Shown: piece by piece, positions 4,289 through 51,703 of the stretch
Position numbering within the stretch: position 1 is the first letter of the stretch
Layout: each line of letters begins with the position of its first letter
Virus record (IMG/VR): IMGVR_UViG_3300032676_000934
Span: 3,388-67,387 of that record
Direction: 5' to 3' (one strand)
DNA: 64,000 nucleotides
Source of the DNA: a virus
Program-made: the position numbers and the translations under genes
Notes under the pieces: generated by a model
Databases searched by the model: none
What the model saw: only the letters and a program-made list of their open reading frames with translations
Told to the model about the DNA's origin: nothing

Positions 4289-6462
4289 ACCGTCGCCGAC
4301 TGAGCATTCGCCAAGGCCAGATTGTGCATCCGGCCAAATGCGTTCTCCATGATCCCGGCTGCCTGTTTCGGGTTCTCGGCGCCCGTGATGGTCGTCTTGT
4401 TGTGAAACGTCTGCGTGACCGTCTTGGTGGAGTTCCCGCCGCTGTTGACCACCGAGGATGATGCTTCCGGCGCGGGCTTCATGTAGTCCCCCGCGTTGAA
4501 GCCCGGCATCTGCATCATGCGCGGCACGCCGGGGATATGGATCTGCGGCGGGGCGGTTGAGCCGTCCGCACCCTTCACCTCAATCTTAGGCGCCTTGATC
4601 TCAATCGGCTGCCGCTCAAGCGGCATCGTGGATGCCTTGGGATCCACCTTCTGCATCAGGGCGACGGCCGTCGCGTTCTTCGCACCGACGAGCGAAGCCC
4701 ACTCGTTTTGCAGACCTACAGGATCAGCACCGCGTTGCCGTGCTAGATTAGCTCCGATCCGGTCCTGCAGCTTCTCGTCATATAGGTCGGTTCCCTTCAA
4801 GCCCAGCTTATCGCGCTGCGCCCTGAGGGTTGTTCGCACCACCTGATACCGACCGATGGCGCTGCTATTCCAGCGGTTGGCAGGGTTCCGGAGCATGCCC
4901 GTCTGTAGGGCATCAATCTGGTCAAGGGTAAGTTTGGTCAGATCCTGCTCCTTCCCACCAGGGAGAAGCAGCCCGTTCGCCAGTGAGGTGTTATAGCCCC
5001 CGCCGGGCCGGTGCGCCGTCCCTTCAGAACGCGCGATGTGATCCAAGACATCCTTGTAGGCGCCAGGATTGGCCGCCACACCGCCGGACTGATCGCCTCG
5101 CATGGCACGAGCCACGCGGGCACGGAGACCACCGCGAGCGTTCGCAGGCTCGTTGGGGTCAGGCTTGCCGCCCAAGATTGTCGGGGCGTAGCGCTGATAT
5201 ATTGATCGGGTGTCCCGAACCGGCCCCGCAGTTGCTCCGGGCGTGACCACGACACCGGGACCGCCTCCATTGGCCCGCTCGAAGGCTGCAGGCCCAGCTA
5301 GGATGCTTGTGATGGTTTTGTCGTAGGCCCCCAAGATGGTTGAGAGCTGAGTGACCCCGGCGATCTTTTTGAGAACGCCGAAGATCGTCTCAAATGCGTT
5401 CGCGATGGCTTTGACGCGGTCCGCGAAGGCGTCCCAGCGCTTCATGAACGCGTCGCCCTCATTGCCCGCGAACCATGTGACCATGGCGCTGAGCTTTTCG
5501 GCGAGCCAGACGACGGCATCCGAGATGCCGCGCATGATGCGCTCGACCTTCTCAGGGTTCGCCGAGATCCATTCCTGAAACCGCTTGACGATCTGCTCCA
5601 GCGCCGGTGCGAGGCTGACCATCAGCTTGTCACCGAGCGCCGACACCGTCGCCTGAAGGCGCGTGAGCGTGCGCTGGAATGCCATGGAGGCGTCGGCGGC
5701 CTCCTTGCTGTTGATGCCCAGCGCCTTGGTCGTGGCATCGTACTCGGCCCGGTACTCCTTCACCTTGGCCGCATACTGCGTCAGGAGCTTGTAGTCCTCC
5801 TCCGAGATGCCGAGCATGCCGGCTTCGCGGCTGCCGACCTGATACTCGTGCTTTGACAGCGCATCGACCGTGTCGAGGAGCTGATCGGCCATGTCCTTGG
5901 TCGTGTCGACGCCAAGGCTCTTGACGTAGCTCTTGAGGCCGTCGTTCGTCCGCAGGGCCTGTGCGAACTTCTCGACGGCGCTGACCGCCTGCTGCGACGA
6001 ACCGCCGACCTGCTTGAACGCGTAGCCGAGCGAGTTGAGGCTCTGCACCGAGGCGCCGGTTCGCGCTGACACGAAGCCGAGGTTGTCGAACGCCTGAGTA
6101 ACCCGGTTCACCGCGTAGCTGATCGCCGTCGCTGCGGCCGTGGCAGCCAGCGCCAGCCGGCTCATGCCGGCCATGAACTCCTTGTTCCGCTCCTCGCGCT
6201 TGCGGGCAGTCTCCTTCTCGGCCTTCTCGCGCTCCTGCGCAGTCGCGAGGGCGGCGCGGGCCTCCTTCAAGTTCGCTTCGCGGGTGAGCTTGGCGATCTC
6301 GTCGGCGGTCTTGGCGCCTTCCCAGCGCGCATCCTCAATCCGCTTCTCAGCGTCACGCACCGCCTTTTCATAGTCGGCGACCGACTTTTTGGCGGTGTTG
6401 AGCGAGCCCTGGTTCACATCGAAGCCGAGGGCTACGAGGAACGAGGCAATGGTGTTATCCAT
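4285..6462 (-). CDS. Tape measure protein with C-terminal lysozyme-like domain
   Basis: N-terminal FLVALGFDV and coiled coil; C-terminal LDHIARSEGT..YNT...SSAIGRYQ muramidase-like motifs. Confidence 0.8.
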   Translation of the reverse strand: MDNTIASFLVALGFDVNQGSLNTAKKSVADYEKAVRDAEKRIEDARWEGAKTADEIAKLTREANLKEARAALATAQEREKAEKETARKREERNKEFMAGMSRLALAATAAATAISYAVNRVTQAFDNLGFVSARTGASVQSLNSLGYAFKQVGGSSQQAVSAVEKFAQALRTNDGLKSYVKSLGVDTTKDMADQLLDTVDALSKHEYQVGSREAGMLGISEEDYKLLTQYAAKVKEYRAEYDATTKALGINSKEAADASMAFQRTLTRLQATVSALGDKLMVSLAPALEQIVKRFQEWISANPEKVERIMRGISDAVVWLAEKLSAMVTWFAGNEGDAFMKRWDAFADRVKAIANAFETIFGVLKKIAGVTQLSTILGAYDKTITSILAGPAAFERANGGGPGVVVTPGATAGPVRDTRSIYQRYAPTILGGKPDPNEPANARGGLRARVARAMRGDQSGGVAANPGAYKDVLDHIARSEGTAHRPGGGYNTSLANGLLLPGGKEQDLTKLTLDQIDALQTGMLRNPANRWNSSAIGRYQVVRTTLRAQRDKLGLKGTDLYDEKLQDRIGANLARQRGADPVGLQNEWASLVGAKNATAVALMQKVDPKASTMPLERQPIEIKAPKIEVKGADGSTAPPQIHIPGVPRMMQMPGFNAGDYMKPAPEASSSVVNSGGNSTKTVTQTFHNKTTITGAENPKQAAGIMENAFGRMHNLALANAQSATV

Positions 6463-45975: not shown

Positions 45976-46226
45976 TGACCGACGAGATTTCGCAGATGGA
46001 CGAGGACAACGCTTGGCGAAAAGACGGCGAGCGCCACGGCTGGACTCTCCCGCCGAAGGCCGCTTGGCCGCTGCGTCTACCGATCGTCCGCGCCGTCCGC
46101 GCCGCGTGGCTGGACTACCAGGTCCACAAGGCCGCATCGGAGTGGGCGTCTATGGGCATCGGCGTCGGTGGCCCCAATCAGCGCGATCTCTGGATCCTGT
46201 ACGCCGTCGCTCGCGGGTGGTGCTGA
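45972..46226 (+). CDS. Hypothetical protein
   Basis: Coupled ORF. Confidence 0.5.
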   Translation: MMTDEISQMDEDNAWRKDGERHGWTLPPKAAWPLRLPIVRAVRAAWLDYQVHKAASEWASMGIGVGGPNQRDLWILYAVARGWC

Positions 46227-46382
46227 TGAGCGCTTTGCTCGCCATTCTTACCGCGGTCGGCATCCTCGCGAACGTCGTCGGCGCGCTGTGCATCATCGTG
46301 CCGTGCGTCGCGTGGCTCGGCTTCATGGCCTGGGCTTTGACTGACCCCGCCTAACCCCTCCCCCACAGATAGGAGAGAAGCG

Positions 46383-46568
46383 ATGGAAGACGTGGATCTT
46401 GGCCTCAAGCTGCTGGCCTACTGCCGCAATCACATCAAGGAGCAGGCCATCACCTGCCCGGAAACCGTCTACCAGAGCGACCGGGTTGTGGAGAGTTCCT
46501 ACGCCTTTGTCGAAGGCGTTTGCGACATCGTTGGGTACGCGCAAAGCGCCGATGATGACGAGGACTGA
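46383..46568 (+). CDS. Hypothetical protein (cassette 2)
   Basis: ATG from repeat 2; I.C.ETVYQSDRV...FVE.VC.IVGY. Confidence 0.6.
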   Translation: MEDVDLGLKLLAYCRNHIKEQAITCPETVYQSDRVVESSYAFVEGVCDIVGYAQSADDDED

Positions 46569-46756
46569 CCCCGCCTAGCCTTTCTGCGCAAATAGGAGAG
46601 AAGCGATGAGCGAGGAGACGCCCCGGCGGTTCAAGGGTGCTGCGCATCGCTGCGCGACTTCGCCCTTGAGCCGCCAAAGCTTACGGCCGGTAGTGGTTTT
46701 CATAGAGCCGCGGCAACACCTGAGCACCTCAGGTGCTCTAATCATGGAGCACTGAG

Positions 46757-47038
46757 ATGGATATCGGCTATCCATTAATACTGATATCTGGGATAGCAAT
46801 CGGTTGGGGCTTCACACAATTTTATTGGGAGCGCCGAGAACTACGCACAGCAAAAGCCTCTCAAGATCAGGGAGAGCGGGCATTTGAGCGATCGGCTCAG
46901 ATCGCCGAAGCCTGGAGATGCGAAGTCACAGGACCTTACGACGCCCCGCAAAATGTTCGAGAGCGCATCGAGCGCCAGAACAAGGTTGCTTGCGAGATAG
47001 CCGCTGCAATCCGGGCAGAAATTGGGGGAAGACGTTGA
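46757..47038 (+). CDS. Hypothetical membrane-anchored protein
   Basis: N-terminal hydrophobic helix; ..EIAAAIR C-terminus. Confidence 0.5.
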   Translation: MDIGYPLILISGIAIGWGFTQFYWERRELRTAKASQDQGERAFERSAQIAEAWRCEVTGPYDAPQNVRERIERQNKVACEIAAAIRAEIGGRR

Positions 47039-47039
47039 A

Positions 47040-47402
47040 ATGAAGCATGGGCACCAACCCACCGTTAGAAATCACGAACGTCCAGATCCGCCCACTACAG
47101 GAAGTGCTGTCGTGCCTCCAAAGACTTCGTGGAATTGCGCGGCACGCAAGCAAGGTACGGCCGGTGGCAATGATCCTGCTGATTGCGACTGGCCGGTCTG
47201 CGGCTGCGATCCTTACGCGGACAAGGTCATTGCCGCGCTTCAAGACGCCGGAGTCATTGTTGCCGCACCCGGCTGGAAGCTGGTTCCCGCCCGACCCACG
47301 GAAGCGATGATCAAGGCCGCGGGAAGCGAATGGGTGCTCGAACGCCTTTGGCGAGCGATGCTTGCGGCCGCGCCAAATCCTACGGGAGGCGACGCTAAGT
47401 GA
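47040..47402 (+). CDS. Hypothetical protein
   Basis: PADCDWPVCGCDP and GWKLVP..PTEAM..A modules. Confidence 0.55.
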   Translation: MKHGHQPTVRNHERPDPPTTGSAVVPPKTSWNCAARKQGTAGGNDPADCDWPVCGCDPYADKVIAALQDAGVIVAAPGWKLVPARPTEAMIKAAGSEWVLERLWRAMLAAAPNPTGGDAK

Positions 47403-47679
47403 GCGGCCCCTTGGATCAACGAACCGCCACATCCGGCGAGGCACTAACAGATGGGATGATAGGGGTCGGGACAGCGGTGCCTCCTGAAAATGGACTGATC
47501 GAATTTTCGTGTGCGAGCCGCACGAGAATTTTCGAACCTTGACGGTGCGGAATACGCAGATCGCTTGCTTTCGGCCTTGAGAACGCGATGTCGGCGGCGT
47601 TGCCCGAACCGCGCCCAGCCGCCTTCGGACCTAAAATGGGGCATTCCGCCTCGATTTTAGGTTCAGGTGAGACAGCGCA

Positions 47680-48705
47680 ATGTACTATGTCGGCCTCGAC
47701 CTCGGTCTCAAGAAGACCGCCGTGTGTATCGTTGACGAAGACGATAAAATTATTCGCAGGGGCGATATTGATAGTGAGCCAGAAGCCATCGCGCTCTGGC
47801 TGTACGAGCAGAAGCTGACCTACAAACGCGTCGGCCTGGAGTCGGGCATGATGCATGAGTATATTTATTTCGGCCTCGTGAAGGCCGGGTATCCGGCCAT
47901 CGTCATCAACTCGGCCGACTCGCGGAACTTCCTCAAGAACAAGATCAACAAGACGGATAAGTCTGACGCGCATGGCATCGCCCGCATGATGCGGATGAAG
48001 CACTACCGCGAGGTCTACGTGAAGACGGAGGAGAGCAGGCGCCAGAGGGCGCTGCTCGCATCGCGCAAGTTGGCCATCGCCAAGATGCGGGACACTGAGA
48101 CCCACATCCGCGGGATCATTCGTCACTTCGGGTTCAAGCTTGGCAAGGTCACGAGAAAGCAGTTCGAACCTCGCGTCCGTGAACTCATCGAGCATGATGC
48201 CATGCTAATGGCGACCGTAGAGCCGATGCTGGCCTTGGCTCGGGCGGCGCGGGAACAGGCGAACACCCTGACCCGGCAGGTGTTGGCCATCGTCAGAGCC
48301 TGTCCCGTCTGTCAGATCCTGATCACGTGCCCTGGGGTCGGTCCCATTGTGGCGCTGATGTTCAAGACCACCATTGACCTGCCGACCCGGTTCCGGAACG
48401 CCAAGGCAGTCGGTGCGGCAGTGGGATTGACCCCGCGACGGTGGGAGTCAGGCGACACGAAGCGCATGGGCCGGATCTCCAAAATTGGAGACGAAGAGCT
48501 TCGCACCAGCCTATTTGAAGGCGCCCAGGCGTTCCTGGCGATGAACAAGAGGCCGTGCTGGCTGCACACTTGGGCGCAGGAACTGAAGGAGAAGAAGGGG
48601 CACTACAAGGCGGTCATTGCGCTTGCCCGCAAGATCGCGATGGTCCTATACATTCTGTGGATCGAGATGCGGCCGTTCCGTTGGGACGATCAGCCCGTAG
48701 CTTGA
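47680..48705 (+). CDS. IS110-family DEDD recombinase/transposase
   Basis: GLD, VGLESG, KTDKSDA (DEDD); PGVG, GLTPRRWESG (catalytic Ser), GRISKIG; intact 341 aa. Confidence 0.95.
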   Translation: MYYVGLDLGLKKTAVCIVDEDDKIIRRGDIDSEPEAIALWLYEQKLTYKRVGLESGMMHEYIYFGLVKAGYPAIVINSADSRNFLKNKINKTDKSDAHGIARMMRMKHYREVYVKTEESRRQRALLASRKLAIAKMRDTETHIRGIIRHFGFKLGKVTRKQFEPRVRELIEHDAMLMATVEPMLALARAAREQANTLTRQVLAIVRACPVCQILITCPGVGPIVALMFKTTIDLPTRFRNAKAVGAAVGLTPRRWESGDTKRMGRISKIGDEELRTSLFEGAQAFLAMNKRPCWLHTWAQELKEKKGHYKAVIALARKIAMVLYILWIEMRPFRWDDQPVA

Positions 48706-48712
48706 TCACGAG

Positions 48713-48902
48713 CTTCCGCCGTTGAGGCGGGAGGTGTCCGTCAAGGACCGAGGGGTTGGTTGGTTCCGGGTCTTACCTTGCAGGGGCATCCGCCTGCTGC
48801 GTCTAACAGATTGGAACACCAACTCGCGGATACCCATCTTGGAGCAGGTTCGCCCTGGCTCCGTAAGCAAGAGCGCAGTCCCTGACGTGATGACTACCTT
48901 CC
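48713..48902 (+). ncRNA. Bridge RNA/seekRNA
   Basis: 5' hairpin, basal stem and two looped arms containing CTAACAGA/TCTTACCTT and CCCATCTTG/AAGCAAGA. Confidence 0.75.
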
Positions 48903-49146
48903 TCAACTTCGATCAGTTCGAAAGGCGGTAACGACGCAGATGCGTTGAACGAGATCCCCTCAAGGGGAGCACCTTCGGTGTGCCGTTAAATACGTTGGCC
49001 CGCGCGAGTGGGAGCCGTAGATGAGATTGGCAGCCGTACTTTTTATGATCGCCCGACGCTCGGGTAGTTCAAGGACGCTTCGCGCCGCTGCGCGGTAAAT
49101 CCTTGAGCTACCCGAGCTTACGGCCGTTCCTGCTCGGCATGGGTTG

Positions 49147-49467
49147 CTAAGGCGGGGTACTGCCTTCCGCTCTGAAGATAATTCGGTTGGCCTGATCGAC
49201 CGGACCGTCTGGGACGAAAGTCCCGTGCTCGTAGACGGCTTCGACCAACTCTTTAAGTGCGGTCAGAAGTTCGGGTGCGGCGGCGATCAGCCGGGCATTG
49301 GCTCTCGCCTCCTCCAGCGTTGCCGTCATCGCATTACCCATGAACGCCACGGTGATCGTGGCCGGGTGATCGCAGGAGACAGTCACATCCGCCGGACGCG
49401 GAATGGAAGCGATGGCTGGATCTGTAAAGTCGTGGACGAACCAAGGTCCACGGGTAAAGGCGGCCAT
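49147..49467 (-). CDS. Cargo: conserved phage hypothetical protein
   Basis: FTRGPW...ANARLIAAAPELL; GGAGGA RBS. Confidence 0.7.
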   Translation of the reverse strand: MAAFTRGPWFVHDFTDPAIASIPRPADVTVSCDHPATITVAFMGNAMTATLEEARANARLIAAAPELLTALKELVEAVYEHGTFVPDGPVDQANRIIFRAEGSTPP

Positions 49468-49473
49468 TCGAAA

Positions 49474-49548
49474 TCCTCCAATCCGATACCGTATTGCAGC
49501 CTAATCCGGTATCGGATAGCTTGCAACAAGCGGTATCGGATTGGAGGA
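49474..49548. promoter_or_regulatory. Palindromic divergent control region
   Basis: Perfect 18-bp IR TCCTCCAATCCGATACCG / CGGTATCGGATTGGAGGA with central ATCCGGTATCGGATA. Confidence 0.75.
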
Positions 49549-49553
49549 CGAAA

Positions 49554-49772
49554 ATGACGGACCACAAGAGCGTAGATACCCTTGGAGATGCGCTTCCTCG
49601 CGAGATGACGCGAGTTCGTGAATTGATCCCGCGGTACGAGAGCGTTCCCATGGGCGGGTTGGCCGCCAACATGATGCGGCACTCGCTGGACCGAGCGCAG
49701 ATAGCCCTCGCTCACGGTGACGTGGTGGCGATGATCCGCTGTTACAAAGACCTCAAGGGTTACGAGGCGTGA
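49554..49772 (+). CDS. Cargo: small hypothetical protein
   Basis: GGAGGA RBS; LGDALP.E..RVRE...GDVVAMIR.Y.DLK. Confidence 0.7.
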   Translation: MTDHKSVDTLGDALPREMTRVRELIPRYESVPMGGLAANMMRHSLDRAQIALAHGDVVAMIRCYKDLKGYEA

Positions 49773-49804
49773 CGCCAGATCCGGTATCGGATACGGCCGC
49801 ACGC

Positions 49805-49981
49805 ATGCCGAAAGAGAAATTCCCTGACGTGATGACGATCCGCCTCCGCGAGGGGACGTTCAAGCGCATCGACGCGATCACCGATCCGAACAAGCGCGGG
49901 GAGTGGATCAGGGACCTGATTGAGCGCGAACTGAAGCGCGAGCGACCGCGTAAGCCGGGCTCAGCGTCGAGCGTGTCATGA
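49805..49981 (+). CDS. Cargo: ribbon-helix-helix regulator
   Basis: MTIRLREGTFKRIDA....RGEWIRDLIERELKR. Confidence 0.7.
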   Translation: MPKEKFPDVMTIRLREGTFKRIDAITDPNKRGEWIRDLIERELKRERPRKPGSASSVS

Positions 49982-50532
49982 CCCCTATCAAGCAAGAGGA
50001 GATCGCTGCGGCGATTGAGGCGCTGGTCTTCTCGTCCTACTCGCACGGCCTCGGGGTCGGAGACGGCACGCTGAGCCAAATGGAGCCTCGCCGCTCCGCA
50101 GAGGCTCGTTTAGCCCTCACCGCCGCGATCCTATCCCGTCTCTCTGCCGCCGAGGCCGGGAGAGAGGCGCACCGAGAGCAGCTACAAGAAGCGCTGGACG
50201 AAATTGACCGGCTAAACGACCCGACGCTCAAGCACATGCGGCTGGAGAACGGCGAGATCAATATGGCCGTCGCCGGGCCGATGGTCGAGCGCTTGGCTCT
50301 GGCAATGACCGCCTGGTTCCGGGAGAGCGGCGCCGAGAACTACGTCGAGATGAACCTCAACGCGCGGGACAATTCGGACGACCGCTACTGCGTCACGGTG
50401 CAGAAGGTGTGGGCGAAGTCGCCTCACCAACTCCGTGCCGAAGCTGAAGCCGCCCGCGACTCCGCCCTTCGAGAACGAGACGAACTAGCTCACCGGCTGA
50501 AAGCGCTGGAGGCGAGTCATGAACGTAGCTGA
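49978..50532 (+). CDS. Hypothetical coiled-coil protein interrupted by the IS
   Basis: In frame with the 47399-47451 fragment across the empty site; present ATG lies in the IS right end. Confidence 0.65.
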   Translation: MTPIKQEEIAAAIEALVFSSYSHGLGVGDGTLSQMEPRRSAEARLALTAAILSRLSAAEAGREAHREQLQEALDEIDRLNDPTLKHMRLENGEINMAVAGPMVERLALAMTAWFRESGAENYVEMNLNARDNSDDRYCVTVQKVWAKSPHQLRAEAEAARDSALRERDELAHRLKALEASHERS

Positions 50533-51040
50533 AAAGTTCTGGAGCAAGGTCAAGCGAAGTGATGACTGCTGGGAGTGGCAGGGAGGAAAGTCACCTCTCG
50601 GGTATGGAAGAGTACGACATGAAGGTAAGGATTGGTTCGCGCATCGAGTGGCTTATTATTTGATTTATGGCGTCCATCCAGGGAACCTGAGCGTTTGCCA
50701 CAAATGCGATAACCCACCCTGCGTTCGCCCGGACCATTTGTTTCTAGGGACTCGTCACGACAACATGATGGACTCGGCAAGAAAGGGCCGTAACGCGATG
50801 CAGCGGTACCCAGAAAAGAACCCGCTCATCCTCAAGATAGCAAGCCAAACTCATTGCAAACGCGGGCATCCGCTGAGCGGCGACAACCTCTATCAAGGGA
50901 GGCGCACAAATCCTCGTCGCGAATGCTTAGCTTGCAAGCGAATGCGCGACCGCTCTGACAAATCGCAGGCGGCACATCGGGCGCGTAGAGCCGCCCGAAG
51001 GATCATAGCTTGTGTGGCCGTGGAGCATGCAAATGGCTGA
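50519..51040 (+). CDS. HNH homing endonuclease
   Basis: FWSKV..DCWEW, AHRVAY, VCHKCDNPPCVRPDHL.LGT..DN; THCKRGH. Confidence 0.88.
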   Translation: MNVAEKFWSKVKRSDDCWEWQGGKSPLGYGRVRHEGKDWFAHRVAYYLIYGVHPGNLSVCHKCDNPPCVRPDHLFLGTRHDNMMDSARKGRNAMQRYPEKNPLILKIASQTHCKRGHPLSGDNLYQGRRTNPRRECLACKRMRDRSDKSQAAHRARRAARRIIACVAVEHANG

Positions 51041-51452
51041 CACATTCGACGAAGCTCTTGATTACATCCGGCCCCACCCATTCACAAACGGCCCGGTGGT
51101 ATTGAAGTCTGGCATGCTTCGATGCTGCGTTTCGGCCATCCTCGTCCACGCGGGGAACCTAGAACGCGAACGCGATGACTATCGAGATGACAGCCTGCGT
51201 CTCCATCGAGAGAAGATGGACCGGTTGCATCGTGCGATTGAGGCTGAGGCTGCCCTGACCGCCGCCCTCGCCCGCGTGGAGAGGCTGGAAGAAGCCCTGC
51301 GCACCGTCGACCAAGACGCACGGGACCACATCCGATCAGATGAGATCGCACCCGCGCTCTTGCGCCCTCATGCCTTGCGGGCTGTCCGGCAAGCCCTCTC
51401 CGATCCCAGCGTTCCTGATCTGAAAGAGACGAGAGAGGGAGCCGAAGGATGA
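51033..51452 (+). CDS. Hypothetical coiled-coil protein
   Basis: Likely start MADTFDE. Confidence 0.5.
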   Translation: MADTFDEALDYIRPHPFTNGPVVLKSGMLRCCVSAILVHAGNLERERDDYRDDSLRLHREKMDRLHRAIEAEAALTAALARVERLEEALRTVDQDARDHIRSDEIAPALLRPHALRAVRQALSDPSVPDLKETREGAEG

Positions 51453-51703
51453 GCGAGCGCACGCTCTACATCACCTATTCGGTGCAGTCCGGCAGTAACA
51501 CGGGGGTCGGCCGCAACACCGTGACCCTGAGTAGCAAAGGCGCCCTCCCCGATCTGCTCAGCATGGCCGACATCCGCCGGATCGAGGAGGATAACTTGCG
51601 GATCGTTCGCGAGACCATGCCAGAGGTAACCGCACTGCACATCACATGGTGGACCGAGATCCGGCCAGAGGTCTCCTCCCCTGCTCCTACCGAGGAGGGC
51701 TAG
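51449..51703 (+). CDS. Hypothetical protein
   Basis: ATGA-coupled. Confidence 0.5.
   Translation: MSERTLYITYSVQSGSNTGVGRNTVTLSSKGALPDLLSMADIRRIEEDNLRIVRETMPEVTALHITWWTEIRPEVSSPAPTEEG

Follow-up and report, generated by a model that had tools for sequence, protein, structure and literature searches.

An IS1111-type element with passenger genes at a gene-end repeat of a phage and the putative start codon that its right end lends to the neighbouring gene

A phage genome represented by a virus record of 67,387 nt (IMG/VR record IMGVR_UViG_3300032676_000934) carries an insertion sequence (IS) between two of its small genes. In the following, the window is the stretch of 64,000 nt of this record that was analysed, and coordinates refer to it unless another locus is named. 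Around the element, small plus-strand genes follow each other with overlapping stop and start codons, and this run is broken between the open reading frames (ORFs) 47022..47402 and 49978..50532. The break is occupied by an IS1111-type element of the IS110 family (47451..49996, plus strand; 2546 nt with the AG crossover dinucleotide counted once), which contains a passenger segment and whose right end would supply the start codon of the 184-aa phage protein encoded downstream. The upstream ORF (plus strand) encodes 126 aa and ends with the TGA stop codon 47400-47402, which overlaps a GTG codon at 47399-47401. Its PHROG matches are weak and of unknown function; relatives of about residues 22-98 occur at 11 IMG/VR loci, none of which has neighbour genes in common with the window. 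An earlier note on this DNA had proposed that a gene starting with this GTG was interrupted in frame by the element, and that the right end of the IS re-starts it.

The element encodes a DEDD transposase of 341 aa (47680..48705, plus strand), which matches PF01548 (E = 7.6e-16) and PF02371 (E = 3.1e-19) and reaches 223.4 bits with NF033542, the NCBIfam model of RNA-guided IS110 transposases (cut-off 140). The closest relatives are proteins with 82 (P0013), 76 and 70% identity. Close copies of the transposase were detected neither in genome contigs nor in viral contigs, and a megablast search of the IS against plasmids gave no match. The metagenome contigs contained only 35 transposase loci with 22-32% identity, and the ends of the IS can therefore not be set by aligning those copies. 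The transposase gene lies between a left non-coding region of 229 nt and a non-coding region of 435 nt (48706-49140). The left subterminal inverted repeat (47457..47467, plus strand) is a perfect match of 11 nt to 49980-49990, and the repeat comprises 17 nt at 88% when it is extended. According to an excerpt of PMC11187229, subterminal inverted repeats of about 11-13 bp and a non-coding region downstream of the transposase gene are marks of the IS1111 group, whose terminal extensions measure 6-7 bp (left) and 3 bp (right). Here, the extensions beyond the repeats comprise 6 nt on the left and either 4 or 6 nt on the right, depending on the assignment of the AG. As judged from its sequence, the element belongs to the IS1111 group in all testable features except the exact length of the terminal extensions. 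The non-coding region 3' of the transposase gene also contains a long hairpin (49051..49124, plus strand) that is related to another hairpin in the window (46617-46689). Both hairpins have the centre TTCAAGG...CCTTGA in common, and their outer stems differ yet pair, which suggests a conserved structure.

Contigs of four public runs (X1, X4, X6 and X7) were compared with the window stretch 46000-51500, and all results for run contigs given here are those among the pieces listed. Run X1, possibly the source sample, contains the whole stretch, and run X7, from lake water, contains identical pieces that include the IS and its passenger. The phage with both is present in several lake-water runs, which may belong to one campaign. 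A leaf metagenome (X4) and an isolate, organism A (X6), contain other copies of the element, in which 47443-49140 is mostly 95-99% identical to the window, followed by 49953 or 49954 to 49996. Both continue after 49996 with sequence that is unlike the window and begins with GTAAG. Since the matching stops after 49996 in X4 and X6, the element ends at this position. Its right-end module (49953..49996, plus strand), which comprises the right inverted repeat and an ATG at 49978, is thus conserved: the contigs of both runs cover it and then diverge. On the left side, the match to the window ends at 47405 in X6 and at 47432 and 47439 in X4, so that these IS copies have the last 12-46 nt of the left flank in common with the window; these nucleotides would travel with the target and not with the IS. 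The X6 sequence has one extra C after 47419, which is inside the supposed coding stretch that starts at 47399. At least 255 unlike letters precede 49954 in X6, and one X4 contig aligns to 49140 and resumes at 49953. Within the left non-coding region, a variable segment with a hairpin (47490..47563, plus strand) is represented by 35 different letters in two contigs of X4 and in one of X6.

Two observations on the run contigs stand apart from these comparisons. The contigs of organism A break within the transposase gene at 47859-47866, with unlike sequence on both sides, which suggests that this copy of the gene is disrupted or truncated. Moreover, a contig of X1 has a joint near window 46000-46385, at which 386 nt are stepped back with 318 other letters in between, and the window itself has direct repeats at 46339-46385 and 46563-46608; the joint may be a variant that arose by local duplication.

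Because one copy of the IS is devoid of 49141-49952, the three extra genes of the window copy can be regarded as a passenger. This optional segment (812 nt, 49141..49952), which is missing from the X4 contig mentioned above, starts with a minus-strand gene for 106 aa (49147..49467) that belongs to phrog_1273 (E = 1.9e-13), a phage family of unknown function. A divergent control region (49474..49548) with a perfect inverted repeat of 18 bp follows, and the 11-mer CGGTATCGGAT occurs three times in or near this region, the third time at 49782. The second passenger gene (49554..49772, plus strand; 72 aa), for which no family was found, overlaps the third one (49769..49981, plus strand; likely start ATG 49805) by GTGA. 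The earlier note had labelled the third gene RHH. No Pfam match was obtained for it up to E = 5, and its nearest Atlas clusters are YlcI/YnfO-like (0.93), with RHH_1 on 11% of the members of one cluster; the label is thus unconfirmed. The last nine codons and the stop codon of this gene are encoded by the right end of the IS. The gene therefore appears to have lost its own end and to stop inside the IS. The region around its start also takes part in an exact direct repeat of 16 nt (26 nt at 85%), which links 48879-48904 in the non-coding region of the IS to 49821-49846; the IS copy of the repeat would encode a short look-alike of the N-terminus, followed by a stop codon.

The programmed target of the element can be predicted from a guide region (seekRNA or bridge RNA; 48772..48871, plus strand) that lies 3' of the transposase gene and contains four 7-mers spaced about 31 nt apart. 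Two of them are complements, CTTACCT (48772) of AG plus GTAAG and CCCATCT (48833) of AG plus the five bases with which the IS starts. The other two are same-sense copies, CTAACAG (48803) of the left flank of the element (47444-47450) and AAGCAAG (48865) of the last seven bases of the IS (49990-49996). When the guide region was shuffled 200,000 times, no shuffle contained all four 7-mers and one contained three of them. In the predicted fold, one small hairpin is enclosed by the first two 7-mers (48772 and 48803) and another by the last two (48833 and 48865), each couple forming the opposite strands of an internal loop. Energetically, the 139-nt guide region folds no better than its shuffled versions (z = -0.02), and a search of Rfam yielded only three sub-threshold chance matches. 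In the seekRNAs of the IS1111 group, the top-strand match lies 5' of the bottom-strand match (PMC11187229, section 9, as excerpted). The order in the window agrees with this, the complement-type match at 48772 being located 5' of the same-sense match at 48803. By these matches, the predicted RNA specifies the target CTAAC-AG-GTAAG together with both ends of the element itself. In the window, the IS is not followed by GTAAG, which forms the right flank of both copies listed, in X4 and X6. Since GTAAG is seen only at the flanks of other copies and not at that of the window copy, it provides an independent check of the guide. The two flanks in the window differ in this respect, as the left one fits the guide at seven of seven positions and the right one, AGGAG, fits GTAAG at only two of five.

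The left half of the target belongs to a repeat that marks the ends of genes. In the window, the copy of about 45-50 nt that ends with GGCACTAACAG extends over 47401..47450 (plus strand) and aligns to 4655-4745 and 4440-4530 of locus L051. This locus lies in one of two other virus records that were retrieved with a palindrome from window 46717-46735 as query. There, GGGCACTAACAG is followed by GTAAG about 700 nt beyond a hairpin and leader module described below (the R module), which makes it an empty copy of the predicted target. A search for the target pattern revealed two exact copies and one degenerate copy in the record of L051 and one exact copy in the other record. When every GGCACTAA in the loci compared is counted, there are six repeat copies of about 45 nt ending with GGCACTAA(C/A/G)AG, namely two in L051 (4495, 4712), two in L055 (38, 280), one on the reverse strand of L052 (4731) and the one in the window (47440). 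The copy at L055 6-47 is nearly identical to that of the window and carries the extra C that is also present in X6. In the three unoccupied canonical copies, all of them in the two other virus records, GGCACTAACAG is invariably followed by GTAAG; in the two degenerate copies, GCAGA and GGCTG come next. All five unoccupied copies end a gene, and the next start codon is found 8, 9, 11, 11 or 17 nt downstream. Through the repeat, two unrelated ORFs have an identical C-terminal tail of 13 residues, and a third ORF matches its last five residues. Thus, the repeat resembles a cassette boundary. Among the contigs listed, the closest relative of the phage comes from X4 and shows 22 differences from the window in 509 nt (46942-47450); it continues after 47450 with GTA and a copy of the R module, without any IS.

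Taken together, the left flank of the element in the window is, on these alignments, the usual landing site of this IS and the gene-end repeat of the upstream gene. The 47-codon ORF that the earlier note had listed here (47399..47542, plus strand) is an alternative frame of the gene-end repeat and probably does not encode the start of the protein downstream of the element. When the left flank or the right end of the IS served as an exact pattern for scanning, one unrelated chance match was obtained in each case. The third-position GC content of the 17 codons between the GTG and the element (0.59) does not discriminate, the values of two upstream genes being 0.47 and 0.57.

On the right side of the element, the phage ORF 49978..50532 (plus strand; 184 aa) receives its first six codons from the IS, and its conserved sequence starts at the junction. 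The protein consists of two parts, a C-domain with many relatives and a rare N-domain, for which an exhaustive search of 1.84 billion proteins found only four representatives, in agreement with a word-based search. Two further homologues of the N-domain, for which the DNA is available, are encoded in the two other virus records mentioned above. A peptide-pattern search for relatives of the 184-aa protein gave none in viral, metagenome or genome contigs, and a tblastn search against phages and plasmids gave matches to the C-domain only. In five of five homologues, whose start codons are those chosen by gene callers or by the listing of ORFs, the sequence that is conserved in the window is preceded by 12-23 residues ending with LPEEI. 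The right flank AGGAG begins at the second nucleotide of the first conserved codon, and after the junction 19 of 20 nt are equal to the L054 homologue, in which the bases before this point are its own L and P codons. This comparison indicates that the gene in the window is devoid of its own first dozen or so codons, and that the IS contributes the ATG and six codons instead. The junction spares every conserved residue of the N-domain. As to the genomic context of these two homologues, the ATG of one overlaps the stop codon of a 70-aa ORF, and 11 nt separate the other from the end of a 120-aa ORF upstream; neither of these upstream ORFs matched any protein of the window. Other small proteins share parts with this family: residues 85-131 of the window ORF 51012 (51012-51452) are 55% identical to the C-terminal part of the L054 homologue (1327-1467), and in P0002 the C-domain is joined to yet another tail. 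Domains thus appear to be shuffled among these small early proteins.

The observation that had drawn attention to the locus could be reproduced. A scripted cut of 47452-49997, which is equivalent to a cut of 47451-49996 or 47450-49995, joins the GTG at 47399 in frame to the downstream ORF and leaves 195 codons, from 47399 to 50532, without an in-frame stop. The overlap of this GTG with the TGA of the upstream ORF is also as the earlier note had described it, and so is the ATGA at 49978-49981, which contains the stop codon of ORF 49769-49981 and the start codon of the 184-aa ORF. The proposed boundaries of the mobile element are right within 1-2 nt, as judged from the inverted repeats and from the X4 and X6 contigs that diverge after 49996, and the joint from 49140 to 49953 in the X4 contig bears out the cargo segment that had been postulated within it. 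An in-frame TAA at 49951-49953 makes ATG 49978 the earliest possible start of the 184-aa ORF. By sequence, this ATG in the right end of the IS is the only start from which the conserved N-domain could be translated, and the earlier note is supported on this point. The chance of each in-frame relation is one in three. However, at the AG crossover dinucleotide the frame of GTG 47399 coincides in phase with that of the right-end ATG, and the two relations are therefore not independent: any downstream ORF that is in frame with one is necessarily in frame with the other, and the double in-frame evidence is weaker than it appears.

How the junction arose has to be judged from both flanks. Because AGGAG mismatches the guide, the junction is probably secondary. 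Moreover, the repeat gives way to the gene precisely at the IS, from which we infer that the two flanks were not neighbours before. On balance, the probable history is that the IS entered a cognate repeat and that the next gene lost its 5' part later on. According to this scenario, the element would have entered the gene-end repeat at its cognate target as usual. A second event, either a deletion or a recombination with a second copy at a weak look-alike site formed by the L, P and E codons, would then have removed the short stretch after the repeat. With it, the next gene would have lost its ribosome-binding site, its start codon and about a dozen initial codons, and the right end of the IS would have come to lie directly against this gene. 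The right end would now supply the ATG and six codons, and the 184-aa protein would be translated by coupling, as the last one of the passenger operon. The frame that starts with GTG 47399 would be open across the repeat merely as a by-product. Several points weigh against this history. An IS-free copy of this phage was not found, and the earlier state is deduced from relatives. The run-contig results are those among the pieces listed, beside which there are another 38 contig pieces and six loose ends, and at the X4 joint between 49140 and 49953 intervening letters, if any, are not reported. The GTG at 47399 resembles a real start codon, given the strong Shine-Dalgarno-like GGGAGG 9 nt 5' of it and the overlap with a stop codon. 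Joining the flanks restores a leucine where five of five homologues have one, although the conserved proline is not restored. A junction that lies exactly at the crossover dinucleotide fits the action of a recombinase at a poor site better than a random deletion. Finally, the low tolerance of mismatches was measured for IS621 and not for this element (PMC11208160, in excerpt); IS621 tolerates one mismatch poorly and two still less.

Some of these points are also arguments for the history that the earlier note had put forward, in which a gene ran from GTG 47399 into 49997, the IS hit its codon 18, and either N-terminus serves. This history requires a single IS event, it accounts for the stop-free in-frame join, for the good ribosome-binding site and the stop/start overlap at 47399 and for the leucine two residues before EEI, as in all five homologues, and it places the junction exactly at the AG crossover, with a left half-site that matches the guide perfectly. 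We nevertheless consider it unlikely. The repeat continues with GTAAG in three of three canonical unoccupied copies and the next gene starts downstream in five of five, the right half-site matches at two of five positions only, the X6 sequence has a 1-nt insertion in the supposed coding stretch, and the homology would need to break off precisely at the cleavage point of the IS. The 47399 fragment can thus hardly be upheld as the gene's own N-terminus, as the flank is a multi-copy gene-end repeat. The homologues, to which the earlier note had looked for a decision, begin neither with a 47399-like N-terminus (0 of 5) nor with an MTPIKQ-like start (0 of 5), and scoring both forms of the N-terminus against them gave values near zero for each. 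The excision switch that had been suggested on the same grounds is unlikely as well. It has been reported that excision and movement of IS1111-type elements need the correct target on both sides (PMC11187229, Discussion, in excerpt), and because one flank, with its two of five positions, no longer fits the guide, precise excision is not expected; furthermore, the joined form would be unlike all five homologues. A somewhat less improbable alternative, which we still regard as rather unlikely, is that the 184-aa ORF is a 5'-truncated remnant with an in-frame ATG by a one-in-three accident and without a functional protein. The ribosome-binding site before 49978 is indeed weak, the same ATG frame would stop after eight codons at one IS copy in X6 (flank consensus), and an intact ORF says little if the event was recent. 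However, an overlap such as this ATGA is what is usually seen for coupled translation in this operon, the conserved residues of the N-domain are all spared, and the phage with IS and passenger occurs in several lake-water runs, possibly of one campaign. It is very unlikely that the 812-nt segment is native phage DNA next to a separate 44-nt relic of a right end, without any passenger-carrying unit. The first passenger gene does come from a phage family, and X4 contains relatives of the operator, the small ORF and the third gene in other contexts, one of them before 49493. Yet 49140 is joined to 49953-49996 in the X4 contig, the match to the window is lost directly after 49996 in two data sets, the third passenger gene, without a stop codon of its own, runs into the IS end, and the inverted repeats pair over the full 2.5 kb.

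Under the history of a cognate insertion followed by a 5' loss, the 184-aa gene and the genes behind it would be read at present as the tail of the passenger operon. Scans for promoters and terminators gave results at the level of shuffles. The ATG of the IS is in phase with the start of the next gene, without a stop codon in between, at four of five unoccupied repeat copies and in the window, a count in which the spacers are homologous and the trials are not independent. The idea that the right end evolved as a portable translation start, by which the downstream cassette gene is put under the passenger operon, is doubtful, and we give it little weight. If it were true, any insertion of the element into the repeat would cause the next gene to be read from the IS, even when this gene has lost its own start. 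A related arrangement lies a short distance upstream, where a hairpin and the 54-nt R module ending with GGAG-N7-ATG (46617..46759, plus strand; 95% identity to L051 3901-4043) form the start of ORF 46757. The R module is 100% identical over 54 nt to L052 (3975-4028), it directly precedes the start codons of three unrelated genes in three virus records, and it occurs in at least five contigs of X4. In L051, it is located in the non-coding region 3' of the transposase gene of a related IS. These findings hint at a role of right ends derived from insertion sequences as exchangeable leaders of genes in this group of phages. The related IS itself (L051 2051-4722) has a transposase with 47% identity and a left end that opens with the same eight bases, and the bases 2060-2068 of this left end are the inverted complement of the repeat copy at 4711-4719. 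It may extend as far as 4722 and include two ORFs, an extent for which its guides gave no clear indication.

The locus is of interest for several reasons. The guide, the target and the ends of a natural IS1111-type element can be read from its sequence and checked against independent copies and empty sites. RNA-guided elements of this type occur in phage genomes, can carry passenger genes, and find their target in a short repeat at the gene boundaries of a phage group. The window offers a concrete case in which the end of an element would supply the start codon of a truncated neighbour. For annotation, it advises caution, as an in-frame restoration across a mobile element can reflect phase relations of the target rather than an ancestral gene.

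The ends of insertion sequences can drive neighbouring genes or fuse to them, either by outward promoters or by start codons encoded in the end. Compared to such cases, the end described here gives a start codon and six codons to a gene that is devoid of its own 5' end, and translation would be coupled to a passenger gene. The element resembles the IS1111 group of RNA-guided DEDD elements, for instance ISEc11, ISPa11 and ISKpn4, in its transposase domains, its subterminal repeats, its downstream non-coding region, the published order of the two target-matching segments, the specific target in multiple copies and the dinucleotide common to both junctions. It is unlike this group in the 812-nt passenger segment of three genes between guide region and right end, in the left non-coding region of 229 nt and in the extensions of 6 and 4-6 nt, and the copy in the window resides in a phage genome with a non-cognate right flank. 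The word passenger was not met in the excerpted part of PMC11208160, which deals with the IS110 family. The combination of a passenger, a phage home, a repeat at gene boundaries as target and a stranded copy whose right end starts a neighbour gene is unusual. A parallel is ISPpu9 of Pseudomonas putida, an IS110 family member that likewise has an optional module 3' of the transposase gene and a repeated target (PMC12288879, in excerpt). In ISPpu9, however, the module consists of a small-RNA gene, the target is a chromosomal REP sequence, and the excerpt describes no fusion to a flanking gene, whereas here the module comprises three genes, the target is the gene-end repeat of a phage, and the right end would start the neighbouring gene.

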